Shown in pieces: positions 3,045 to 48,628 of a stretch of DNA of 64,000 nucleotides. How positions within the stretch are numbered: the stretch's first letter is position 1; each line of letters starts with the position of its first letter. The position numbers were made by a program, and so were the translations under genes. The stretch is from Rickettsiales bacterium. Its GTDB lineage: Bacteria > Pseudomonadota > Alphaproteobacteria > Rs-D84. The notes under the pieces are model-generated. The model ran no database searches. It was not told the DNA's origin and saw nothing but the letters and a program-made list of their open reading frames with translations. The stretch is taken from assembly GCA_031260805.1 (NCBI GenBank), contig JAISKV010000004.1:4227-68226 (forward strand). The letters run 5' to 3'.

Positions 3045-3133
3045 TTGGTTAAGTTTAAGGTTTGAGGTTTGAGGTTTAAGGTTTAAGGTAATTTTGTCAA
3101 TAACCTTAAACCCCAAACCTCAAACCTTAAACC
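3045..3133. terminator. Long near-perfect hairpin (aaggtttaagg / ccttaaacc arms, about 32 bp stem) immediately downstream of the capsid-like gene
   Basis: Inverted repeat seen directly; its position mirrors the T7 T-phi terminator after gene 10; the same aaggttt motif flanks host terminators elsewhere in the window. Confidence 0.5.
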
Positions 3134-3137
3134 TTGT

Positions 3138-14542: not shown

Positions 14543-14620
14543 GTCATTCCGGGGGAGCGCAGCGAAACCCGGAATCCATTGAGCCATGGACCCCGGGGCG
14601 TGGCCGGGGTGATGACGGAC
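14543..14620. repeat. RPE-like palindromic element (gtcattccggg ... cccggaatcc family)
   Basis: Other copies at 24745-24835, 26675-26790, 31730-31795, 45625-45765; partial at 15700-15745. Confidence 0.6.
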
Positions 14621-14662
14621 CACGAGTACCGAGTACGAATAACGAATAACAAAAAAAACGCG

Positions 14663-14690
14663 GCGTCGCCGCGTTTTTTATTTCTTGCTT
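14663..14690 (+). terminator. Rho-independent terminator after ligA
   Basis: aaaacgcggcgtcgccgcgtttttt. Confidence 0.6.
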
Positions 14691-14782
14691 TTTGTATGAA
14701 ATCTCTATACAATGCAGACGATACGGCGATTTGCTGTGTTTGGGCTTGATAACCCATCTTGAGTGTCCGCAGGGACAGAAAA

Positions 14783-14886
14783 AACTCCAACTGCTGGTTG
14801 GAGTGCGTTGAATATATTGAATACCACGCGCAATTCTCAAGATTGTTATCAAACTCCAACCACCATATCTGTTGGTGGTTTTTTAT
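14783..14886 (+). promoter_or_regulatory. Structured 5' leader, copy 1: hairpin A, conserved ttgaatatattgaata box, terminator hairpin B; the A 3' arm can alternatively pair with the B 5' arm
   Basis: Stems read directly; a second copy with compensatory changes at 16362-16468. Confidence 0.5.
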
Positions 14887-14905
14887 GTCGTCAAAGGAGT
14901 TGCGG

Positions 14906-15502
14906 ATGATTATGGGCGATTGGGGATCTGCGCATTACATAACCAGTCAGATTTTTATCAGTGTTGCGTACATGCTGCTGGCGTTCAGTTATTTTATCCG
15001 CGCCAGGACAAAATTGCTGGGCACGATTATAACCAGCAACTTGCTGATGGGCGTCGGGTTTTTATTATTGAACGCGTGGGTCGGATTGGGAATGTGCCTG
15101 GTTGCGACAGCCCGCGATATTGTCAGCGAAATTATATGGAATAAAAGAAATCCCGCGGACAGGGACAAAATAACCAGGTCTGACTGGTGGCTGCTGGGAT
15201 TATGGCTGGCGGCGATTTCGGCAATAACATTATTTACAATGGATGGATTTCCGACTTTGTTCGCATATTTTGCAACAATGTGCTTTACAATTTCAATATG
15301 GCAAAAGAATGGATTGGTATACAGATTGCTGGGGATTGCGGTCGGGGCATTCTGGATAATTTATAATATTGTAATCAGCAGTTTTATGGGACTGACGCTG
15401 GAAAGCGCATTGCTGGTCTTTGTAATTTTCGGGCTGGCCGCGTATATTAAAAAGAATTATCTGCGTACCGCATCGCGCATTGTTGACACTCGCGCTCTGT
15501 GA
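14906..15502 (+). CDS. Polytopic inner membrane protein
   Basis: Start placed at the ATG after the aaggag RBS; multiple hydrophobic helices. Confidence 0.6.
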   Translation: MIMGDWGSAHYITSQIFISVAYMLLAFSYFIRARTKLLGTIITSNLLMGVGFLLLNAWVGLGMCLVATARDIVSEIIWNKRNPADRDKITRSDWWLLGLWLAAISAITLFTMDGFPTLFAYFATMCFTISIWQKNGLVYRLLGIAVGAFWIIYNIVISSFMGLTLESALLVFVIFGLAAYIKKNYLRTASRIVDTRAL

Positions 15503-15745
15503 CCCCACCCCGGAAAATTCTAATGAATTTTCCGACCCGCCCTCAAGGGGCGGGTAGTGAGTTCGGAGCCACTTGAAACTCGGAGCAAATCACCCGCCCC
15601 TTGAGGGCGGGTCAAAACGCCATCGGCGTTTTGGGGTGGGGTTGCATCACGCCGAAGTGAAGCGTCGCGGGATGACCAGTATGGGTGGTTCTGCACGGCC
15701 ATAGACCCCGGGGCGTGGCCTGGGGTGACGATGGGATAAACATAT
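15503..15745. repeat. Complex nested palindromic element (ccccacccc/ggggtgggg and cccgccctcaaggggcggg arms) between convergent genes
   Basis: Inverted repeats seen directly; ORF 15520-15702 inside it rejected. Confidence 0.5.
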
Positions 15746-15773
15746 CAGACAATATATATTAATTCACTTGAAC

Positions 15774-16340
15774 TTAAAATTTTATGCTGATACTGGTATC
15801 AAGCGCGATTGCAGAACCGATTATATCAATATCAAATCCGTAGATTTTTGTTGACGAAGAAAATCCGCTGTATGACAATCCAACTTTAATGTTGGATGTA
15901 TCGGTCAAGTTATATTGGACCCCGGCGCCAATCCCATAAGAGAATCCTGTTGCAGAAATTTCTTCACCATAAACATCAGCATCTATGTTGATAGATGCTA
16001 TTCCGATATTTGTTGAAATATATGGGGTAAATTGAGTATCCATCAGCGCGTATGTCCAGCCGATATCAAATTCATTTATTGAAGTTGTATCGTCTGTTTC
16101 GCGCGCAAAAAAAACGCCGCCCATCATTTTATTATTCCCGTACCCTAATGCAAATCCTCCGTAATTGTTAAATCCGCCGCTTGTGTTTTTAGCGATATTT
16201 ACCCCTTCAATTGACATTTTTATGTCAGTTGAACTGAGAACATTCGCACCAGTTGAGACTATGAACCCGTAATCATTGGCGGCATTTGCCGCGCCTGCCG
16301 CAATCATTGCCCCAAAAGACATTAACATAACTTTATTCAT
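15774..16340 (-). CDS. Small outer membrane beta-barrel protein
   Basis: Signal peptide; alternating amphipathic beta strands; C-terminal F. Confidence 0.6.
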   Translation of the reverse strand: MNKVMLMSFGAMIAAGAANAANDYGFIVSTGANVLSSTDIKMSIEGVNIAKNTSGGFNNYGGFALGYGNNKMMGGVFFARETDDTTSINEFDIGWTYALMDTQFTPYISTNIGIASINIDADVYGEEISATGFSYGIGAGVQYNLTDTSNIKVGLSYSGFSSSTKIYGFDIDIIGSAIALDTSISIKF

Positions 16341-16361
16341 GAAGTATCTCCTTTGTTTTCA

Positions 16362-16468
16362 CAAAACAACCACCAAAAATGTTTGGTGGTTGGAGTTTTC
16401 TAACAATGTCTTGTGATATTGCTGGCTTTATTCAATATATTCAGCCAACTCCAACCGTTTGGTTGGAT
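16362..16468 (-). promoter_or_regulatory. Structured 5' leader, copy 2, upstream of the OMP gene
   Basis: Reverse complement aligns with 14783-14886: ggttggagt, tgaatatattgaata, aactccaaccacca ... tggtggtt plus T-run. Confidence 0.5.
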
Positions 16469-16631
16469 ATTTTTCGTAATCTCTTACGCACAAGATCTGG
16501 GTTAGAAAGCCCCCGTGCAATTATTTATTGCACTGATGCGAGTTTATAAAGTATTTGTCAGATTGTAAAGATAAAAATAACCCCTGTCCGCTGTGGCGGA
16601 CAGGGCGCGCGCAGGCATCGGCCTGCATTTT

Positions 16632-35952: not shown

Positions 35953-36029
35953 CGGGGCGTAGTTCAGTCTGGTAGAATGCTTGCATGGGGTGCAAGTGGT
36001 CGTCCGTTCAAATCGGGTCGCCCCGACCA
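35953..36029 (+). tRNA. tRNA-Pro (anticodon GGG)
   Basis: Hand-folded; loop ATGGGGT; CCA encoded. Confidence 0.7.
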
Positions 36030-48543: not shown

Positions 48544-48628
48544 GCGTCCATGGTGGAATTGGTAGACACGCTACCTTGAGGTGGTAGTGGGGCAACCCTT
48601 GGGAGTTCGAGTCTCCCTGGACGCACCA
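48544..48628 (+). tRNA. tRNA-Leu (anticodon GAG)
   Basis: Hand-folded; loop TTGAGGT; long variable arm; CCA encoded. Confidence 0.8.

Follow-up and report, generated by a model that had tools for sequence, protein, structure and literature searches.

Two facing leaders and the genes behind them

We analysed a 64,000-nucleotide (nt) stretch (the window) of contig JAISKV010000004.1 from a Rickettsiales bacterium of the lineage Rs-D84. Two copies of a structured RNA leader lie there on opposite strands and face each other: copy 1 on the plus strand ahead of a gene for a YgjV-family inner-membrane protein, and copy 2 on the minus strand ahead of a gene for an outer-membrane beta-barrel protein (OMP). 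An earlier note, made from the letters of the sequence alone, had placed them at 14783-14886 and 16362-16468 and taken them for a conserved terminator/antiterminator leader. Both are present in the window sequence where it put them, and its interpretation is supported by the covariation of the mutually exclusive folds. Each copy is a self-contained unit comprising a promoter, a 5' hairpin (P0), a multi-helix core of ~120 nt, an intrinsic terminator, a ribosome-binding site (RBS) and a gene; the leader is ~165 nt long. The boundary given earlier is too short: the true start lies ~60 nt further upstream, taking in the promoter, the 5' hairpin and the long-range helices P1 and P1b, which enclose the hairpin A of the earlier note and have their 5' strand upstream of its start. 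The two copies are best explained as 5' leaders of separate transcription units, both belonging to a large family of bistable, cis-acting attenuators.

The whole element of copy 1 spans 14685-14884 on the plus strand. A putative sigma-70 promoter (TTGCTT at 14685-14690, a 17-nt spacer, TACAAT at 14708-14713), read directly from the sequence, is placed between the ligA terminator (14653-14679) and P0; the promoter scan does not list it because its -35 box matches at 3/6 positions. P0 (14720-14740, from the minimum free energy (MFE) fold) stands at the predicted transcript start. The core (14742-14861) is delimited by covariance model R1 (100.6 bits, E 1.5e-22), the MFE fold and covariation. It opens with GGG (14742-44), and its helix P1/P1b (P1, 14747-53 with 14845-51; P1b, 14756-63 with 14836-43) encloses three hairpins: P2 (14764-77), P3 (14784-14804), which is hairpin A, and P4 (14805-29, loop 14809-23), the terminator following downstream. 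A predicted pseudoknot pair joins C14745 and G14830, and a further hairpin, P5 (14831-34 with 14842-45), belongs only to the alternative fold B described below. The box ACUCCAACC (14853-61) is overlapped by the 5' arm of the intrinsic terminator (hairpin B and its U-run, 14858-14884; terminator scan and MFE fold). An RBS (AAGGAG, 14894-99) precedes the ygjV gene (ATG at 14906, stop at 15502; Pfam PF10688, E 1.9e-20).

Copy 2 (16569-16363 on the minus strand) repeats this layout. Its putative promoter (TTTACA, 17-nt spacer, TAAACT; 16541-16569) was found by the promoter scan with 9/12 matches and is placed between an upstream terminator (minus strand, 16605-16582) and P0 (GUGCAAU-AAAUA-AUUGCAC, 16515-16533, MFE fold), so that in the terminator scan both window copies are insulated by terminators of upstream genes. 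The core (16388-16512; R1 100.9 bits, E 1.3e-22; MFE fold) holds P1 (16508-01 with 16404-16397), P1b (about 16495-89 with 16415-09), P2 (16488-75), P3 (16467-16448), the P4 loop (16443-29) and the box ACUCCAACC (16396-88), and is followed by the intrinsic terminator with its U-run (16363-16392, terminator scan). The OMP gene behind it occupies 15774-16340 on the minus strand (Pfam PF13505, E 3e-8). An OMP homologue in another genome (locus L086) is likewise preceded by a leader of the same family.

Over ~190 nt the two regions are 80% identical, and AACTCCAACCACCA is the same in both. The 15-mer TGAATATATTGAATA occurs exactly twice in the 64 kb, at 14809-14823 (plus) and 16429-16443 (minus), with a chance expectation of ~0.28 matches even if two mismatches are allowed. 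When 170-180 nt are folded, both copies take on one common architecture that is far outside chance (z-scores -5.5 and -7.7). The terminator scan bears out the claim that hairpin B and its U-run form an intrinsic terminator in each copy (plus 14858-14880; minus 16392-16367). The proposed exclusive pairing is also exact: the 3' arm of hairpin A, GGTTGGAGT (14796-14804), is the reverse complement of the flank of B, ACTCCAACC (14853-14861), and copy 2 behaves likewise. Two details of the earlier description have to be revised. The difference in hairpin A is not compensatory, because the two copies share one 3' arm and the altered 5' arm shifts the end of the helix; true compensatory differences between the copies lie in P1, P1b, P2 and P4 (for example UGUCC/GGACA against CGUAA/UUACG in P2). 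What had been described as a single-stranded box forms the P4 hairpin loop, which holds the conserved 15-mer.

When the window was scanned with R1, both copies scored ~100 bits and the next-best match 17 bits; with two models and filters off, no further or divergent copies were found in the 64 kb. A weak match at 3059-3126 with both RNA models was set aside as an unrelated octamer-repeat palindrome. The region in question (3048-3136) is a long perfect intergenic palindrome of tandem octamers, (GGTTTRAG)n facing (CYTAAACC)n.

The wider family and its downstream genes

Pattern scans and the covariance model together recover at least 226 distinct relatives, supplying the further copies for which the earlier note had proposed to look. 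An exact-pattern scan over one genome per species gave at least 120 matches; a second scan, of metagenomes with a loop-independent pattern, was counted over the matches listed and is likewise a minimum. The 226 unique elements are the two pattern scans combined, a lower bound. R1, used for the covariance search that the earlier note had suggested, recovered additional family copies that the patterns had missed, with E < 1e-8 for 100/100 matches. Nearly all listed matches come from alphaproteobacterial metagenome-assembled genomes of gut or rumen (Candidatus Enterousia, 'Rickettsiales bacterium', RUG/RGIG bins), often with several copies per assembly. The order Rs-D84 (Candidatus Enterousia) is uncultured and poorly understood, with genomes of < 1 Mb (PMC12306168).

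The anatomy of the window copies recurs throughout the family. A P0-like hairpin, whose helix covaries strongly, is found in 221/226 members, and a terminator with a U-run in 183/222; P1, P3 and P4 were formed by energy alone in 108/116 members. Across the family the P4 region is a conserved internal loop, stem-GAAUA(A/U)...(G/A)AAUAA-stem, whose middle is either ~4 nt or an inserted hairpin with a compensated stem, and the exact 13-mer is present in 31/128 of the metagenome matches listed, the pattern not selecting on the loop. A -10-like hexamer occurs in 202/226 members, with a peak 25-34 nt upstream of P1; these promoter-like boxes at a fixed upstream distance disfavour a transcription start downstream of hairpin B, the possibility against which the earlier note had warned. 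A co-oriented open reading frame (ORF) with a Shine-Dalgarno (SD) sequence follows in 157/192 testable members (82%), at a median of 50 nt after the box. The gap between terminator and start codon is 20-45 nt, which leaves no room for another promoter.

Among ~100 downstream genes examined, 22 encode secreted cysteine-rich proteins without a Pfam family, 19 encode small XRE-type helix-turn-helix (HTH) proteins and 11 belong to a second small family. The others include further signal-peptide proteins, the OMP, YgjV and numerous singletons. Genes for small HTH proteins are monocistronic, and their positions are conserved, one such position adjoining accC.

Tandem leaders, two or three in a row, were seen at several loci (L086, with three copies, L063, L115 and L186); successive cores are 93-152 nt apart, and the intervals contain no ORF. 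The arrangement recalls tandem riboswitches and T-boxes.

This linkage to genes bears on the reading that the elements are stand-alone genes for trans-acting small RNAs (sRNAs), each with its own promoter, an RNA of ~165 nt and its own terminator, proximity to a gene and occasional read-through being secondary. We consider this reading quite improbable. A promoter, a strong terminator, termination as the default fold and a 5' hairpin typical of stable RNAs all agree with it, as do CCUCC motifs resembling an anti-SD sequence, tandem copies without intervening ORFs and the detection of the related sRNA-Xcc1 as an 88-nt RNA (PMC2996969). However, the co-oriented SD and ORF in 82% of testable members, at a median of 50 nt after the box, tell against it: with no room for a separate promoter, the downstream genes would depend on read-through. 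A pure sRNA would also have no need of the antiterminator, which is kept by covariation and by the concerted changes in three segments reported below.

Attenuation by a leader peptide, mediated by ribosomes, was weighed on the same 226 leaders, together with the idea that the elements are DNA operators for the downstream XRE-family proteins; the pair is very improbable. An ORF of at least 6 codons with SD and ATG is found in only 35/226 leaders and its position varies, core lengths are evenly distributed modulo 3, and no conserved short leader ORF was found in the 226 leaders examined, even though alternative terminator and antiterminator are a hallmark of leader-peptide control too. An operator would fit the palindromic AATATATT and the 30 XRE-type HTH proteins among the ~100 downstream genes. 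Against this, the P4 motif takes inserted hairpins with compensatory stems, which indicates a constraint at the level of RNA and not of DNA. We rejected both on this evidence.

Covariation, alternative folds and the proposed switch

Covariation was computed on a model-based alignment of 100 sequences. Such an alignment was needed, since plain MAFFT with RNAalifold on whole leaders recovered only P0 and the antiterminator. In the nested structure, fold A, 93.2% of cells are paired compared with 73.3% in shuffles. Its covariation score is 0.522 against a shuffled mean of 0.165, a value matched by 0/500 shuffles, and controls with slid partners reach at most 0.067; the covariation in relatives on which the earlier note's reading depended is thus found. 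The P1 pairs display four pair types with zero unpaired cells (for example, 7-273 is AU in 42 sequences, CG in 34, GC in 14 and UA in 10). One candidate pair at the base of P1, G3-C276, was discarded: it is not kept when position 276 is A, and 276 covaries with the P3 3' arm instead.

A mutual-information scan revealed only four further strong couplings. The first, 171-276 (GC:78 / UA:14 / UG:7), is the terminal pair of the antiterminator, in which the P3 3' arm pairs with the box; the helix that the earlier note had proposed is 99.7% paired and its terminal pair covaries. The second, 241-264 (AU:45 / UA:45), corresponds to hairpin P5, which has the P1b 3' strand as its loop. The third, 4-239 (UA:43 / CG:37), is long-range and lies outside any nested helix. 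We interpret it from the aligned sequences as a pseudoknot pair that may stack on the end of P1 in fold A; in the window it is C14745/G14830 in copy 1, and in copy 2 C16509 with the G that follows the P4 3' strand. The fourth, 5-275, is mostly G·A or U-A. The 5' hairpin GGG...CCC covaries as well, at pair 1-18.

When the antiterminator is enforced, the predicted structure (fold B) holds exactly P5, the 5' hairpin, P2 and P4, and RNAalifold independently selects the antiterminator. Individual nucleotides exchange partners between the two structures: G3-C240 and C14-G267 in fold A become G3-C14 and C240-G267 in fold B. The agreement between the couplings and the enforced fold thus points to two alternative conformers with partner swapping. 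The strongest evidence for a switch is the concerted change of three segments, both arms of P3 together with the box, in five divergent variants. In the order 5' arm, 3' arm, box, these segments read CUCCUGACC, GGUCAGGAG and CUCCUGACC in one variant; UCCCGACC, GGUCGGGA and UCCCGACC in another; CCCGACC, GGUCGGGG and CCCCGACC in a third; and CCUGACC, GGUCGGGUG and CACCCGACC in a fourth.

Divergent leaders of the same clade with mutually complementary arms and box are located at L046 (665-855, minus) and L023 (minus, offset 4250 of the reverse complement), and further ones with the same complementarity at L090 (minus, reverse-complement offset 5456), L041 (3482, plus) and L134 (minus, reverse-complement offset 3685).

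Sequence change in the helices bears on the reading of the elements as selfish or neutral repeats without a regulatory role, akin to miniature inverted-repeat transposable elements (MITEs), repetitive extragenic palindromic (REP) sequences or Rickettsia palindromic elements (RPEs). Compensatory changes occur in five helices, within and between genomes; orientation and spacing to the downstream start codon are fixed, promoter and terminator belong to the unit, and orthologous positions are kept across species, as before the small HTH gene beside accC. Neither terminal inverted repeats nor target duplications were seen. All this stands against features that a repeat would share, namely multiple copies with near-identical sequence blocks, absence upstream of ygjV orthologues in relatives and a window rich in other palindromic repeats. 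We rejected this reading, which is scarcely credible.

In both window copies fold A with the terminator is the more stable structure, by about 10-16 kcal/mol (copy 1, -61.4 for fold A vs -51.7 kcal/mol for fold B; copy 2, -65.8 vs -49.7 kcal/mol), so that termination, the OFF state, should be the default. Most of the invariant nucleotides sit in the three-way junction of fold B. The switching helices are nearly invariant in sequence and the remaining helices vary freely.

That the leaders are cis-acting bistable attenuators is, in our judgement, probable. The proposed mechanism is as follows. Fold A, made up of P1, P1b, P2, P3, P4 and the pseudoknot pair, would form first during RNA synthesis, with segments of the 5' half pairing with three separate segments of the 3' half and the terminator left free. 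In P3, CUCCAACC would pair with GGUUGGAG; P1b would sequester what later becomes the loop of P5, P1 would engage the strand just before the box, and the pair Y4-R239 would complete the fold. The box, (A/C)CUCCAACC, being free, would then start the terminator hairpin, and RNA polymerase would stop 20-45 nt before the start codon. In fold B the P3 3' arm would re-pair with the box as a 9-bp antiterminator, closing a three-way junction with P4 (and its GAAUA/AAUAA internal loop) and P5, while the 5' end would collapse into the GGG...CCC hairpin; the terminator would be blocked and the gene transcribed. The 5' half, already made by then, would thus compete for three segments of the sensor, the three-way junction. 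An effector (a small molecule, a protein or an RNA) would bind and stabilise this junction and so turn the gene ON; in these gut bacteria with reduced genomes, the outcome would be coordinated control of surface and secreted proteins and of small XRE regulators. For the complete statement, a default-OFF leader switched ON by an effector that stabilises fold B, we see the chances as evenly balanced.

The same bistable attenuator might work with the opposite logic: an effector binding fold A, at its four-way junction, Y4-R239 and the P4 loop, would enforce termination, and read-through would occur without it. Covariation is stronger in fold A, which is also the more elaborate of the two and has a pseudoknot-type tertiary pair as is typical of ligand-bound aptamers; in most transcriptional riboswitches, moreover, the fold with P1 is the one that the ligand stabilises. 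Yet it is already favoured by ~10 kcal/mol without any effector, so that an OFF ligand would add little, and the conserved nucleotides concentrate in the three-way junction common to sRNA-Xcc1, which itself lacks the partner strands of fold A. On balance we regard the opposite logic as unlikely.

Several points weigh against the default-OFF, effector-ON statement. The transcript ends and read-through on which it depends are predictions from the sequence. Its switching direction is inferred from where conservation lies and from the analogy with sRNA-Xcc1, and scores between the family and sRNA-Xcc1 are sub-threshold in both directions; the Y4-R239 pair gives fold A so elaborate a shape that it could equally be the effector-bound state. 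Unless control is kinetic, a ligand would have to overcome the calculated gap of 10 kcal/mol, which is large. The near-invariance of CUCCAACC and GGUUGGAG across species suits recognition by a protein or an RNA as well as by a ligand. We found no shared metabolic theme or coherent pathway among the downstream genes, and nothing there points to a ligand. In four related lineages, ygjV orthologues (proteins 78-60% identical, upstream regions unrelated) have no such leader before them, which indicates that the leader is not tied to ygjV.

The window contains other repeats and RNAs besides the leaders. A palindrome with 35-nt arms (GACCCGCCCTCAAGGGGCGGG...) lies at 15534-15613, and again at about 15620-15740, between the convergent ygjV and OMP genes; Rfam matches to mir-28 and mir-9229 at 15533-15613 were attributed to this REP-like palindrome and not to the leader. 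Similar palindromes, CCCCTTCGC...GCGAAGGGG, occur on the minus strand in three other places (offsets 17200, 31717 and 51835 of the reverse-complemented window), and the recurring CCCCTTCGC...GCGAAGGGG palindromes look like a REP-like repeat family. Direct repeats of 27 nt (GCCATGGACCCCGGGGCGTGGCCGGGG), 93% identical, flank the leader-plus-ygjV unit at 14583-14609 and 15698-15724. These could represent a further hairpin repeat, or else a remnant of the arrival of a cassette, ygjV orthologues elsewhere being without the leader. ARAGORN predicts six tRNAs in the window, among them tRNA-Pro(GGG) at 35953-36029 and tRNA-Leu(GAG) at 48544-48628; the Rfam scan at gathering threshold reports four of the six.

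Relation to sRNA-Xcc1 and other known systems

The earlier note recognised no known family, and none of the 4227 families of Rfam 15 matches the leaders at threshold. In scans of the window and eight related loci, run with gathering and with permissive cut-offs, only tRNAs reach threshold; over either window leader, the only match at E <= 10 is a chance-level one to UptR (18 bits, E = 8). Weak matches to c4-a1b1 and isrK near some leaders were judged to be chance. We found no prior description of the motif in the literature on the host genus, on structured RNAs of gut metagenomes or on Xcc1 as a cis element, with 200/408 of the supplementary files of PMC8040213 covered.

The closest resemblance is to sRNA-Xcc1 (RF02221). 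The gathering threshold of that family, 53 bits, is not reached: the window copies have no match at E <= 10, and in the permissive scan the scores are 37 bits for the best canonical leader (L038) and 43.8 bits for the divergent one in L046, compared with 72.6 and 69.7 bits for true Xcc1 elements. Conversely, a model of fold B (R2), which gives the window copies 73.3 and 70.0 bits, has the true Xcc1 elements as its top match in two plasmid loci, in register, weakly at 14.8 and 11.8 bits. Both RNAs form a three-way junction in which an outer helix encloses two hairpins followed by a U-rich joining strand, and in the leaders this is the covarying fold B. The outer helix, 9 bp and G/C-rich, corresponds to the antiterminator; hairpin 1, with its A/U-rich internal loop and GAAUAA 3' loop strand, to P4; hairpin 2 to P5; and the U-rich joiner to the 3' strand of P1. 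The hairpin-1 loop of Xcc1 is AAUACAAU / GAAUAA with a distal CCC-GAAA-GGG. The leaders have the same (G/A)AAUAA 3' strand, with GAAUA(A/U) as the P4 5' strand against AAUACAA in Xcc1, and the distal hairpin is optional. The variant L023 has UAUACAA, and in both the L046 and L023 variants P4 is closer to sRNA-Xcc1 (UAUACAA / AUAUAAGA). Like the leaders, sRNA-Xcc1 is multi-copy and located directly upstream of a co-oriented gene (PMC12189769).

The two also differ. Neither the 5' competitor domain (P0, P1, P1b, P2 and the P3 5' arm) nor the U-run terminator is present in true Xcc1 elements. These are carried by mobile elements of Desulfovibrionia and of Gamma- and Betaproteobacteria, where they precede toxin or antirepressor-type genes, and the literature describes them as trans-acting sRNAs. 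Northern analysis and end mapping of sRNA-Xcc1 concern Xanthomonas only (PMC2996969). Xcc1 has been placed before symE in Xanthomonas integrons (bioRxiv 10.1101/2025.06.18.660453) and before an ORF6N protein gene in the APSE phage (bioRxiv 10.1101/2020.03.17.996009). The true elements lie 40-55 nt upstream of co-oriented genes. Two of them, at L251 (882-972, Nitratidesulfovibrio vulgaris plasmid) and L252 (898-980, Pseudomonas aeruginosa plasmid), stand before genes for a hypothetical protein and a BRO-family protein, and their outer-helix strands resemble an SD (GGGAG) and an anti-SD (CUCCC) sequence. The position upstream of genes, together with these strands, suggests that Xcc1 may be cis-regulatory.

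The leader family and Xcc1 may plausibly be distant relatives, or their junctions may have converged. A further proposal, possible though doubtful, is that the common junction serves as the sensor in a new and widespread class of riboswitch-like RNAs that respond to a cellular signal: wired to a terminator in gut Alphaproteobacteria, where it would govern surface and secreted proteins and small regulators, and acting in the Xcc1 of integrons, prophages and plasmids as a cis switch for toxin or antirepressor genes. On this view sRNA-Xcc1, annotated as an sRNA in many mobile elements and pathogens, would be a cis-regulatory sensor. For Rs-D84, a ~165-nt leader present several times per genome, and twice in the 64 kb of the window, would be a major regulatory circuit, and the genes behind it probably mediate contact with the host or with other microbes. 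For RNA biology, the family is well populated, offers unusually clear evidence for two conserved alternative folds, and presents an orphan switch for whose effector a search is now possible.

Among known elements, the leaders resemble REP, MITE and RPE repeats in being short, multi-copy, strongly self-complementary and intergenic in a small alphaproteobacterial genome. They differ in being strand-specific, in carrying a promoter and a terminator, in their fixed position relative to start codons and in the evolution of their helices by compensatory change. With terminator/antiterminator leaders (riboswitches, T-box, PyrR, TRAP and BglG-type systems) they share a structured 5' leader whose helices covary, an anti-antiterminator, an antiterminator and a terminator that exclude one another, and several copies per genome that form a regulon, with occasional tandems. 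Hallmarks of riboswitches, a covarying structured domain and a mutually exclusive terminator/antiterminator platform, are present, whereas the genes controlled here make up no metabolic pathway but encode small regulators and secreted or surface proteins. Leaders of the terminator/antiterminator kind are already known; what is new is the family, its two-fold design, its regulon and the link to sRNA-Xcc1.

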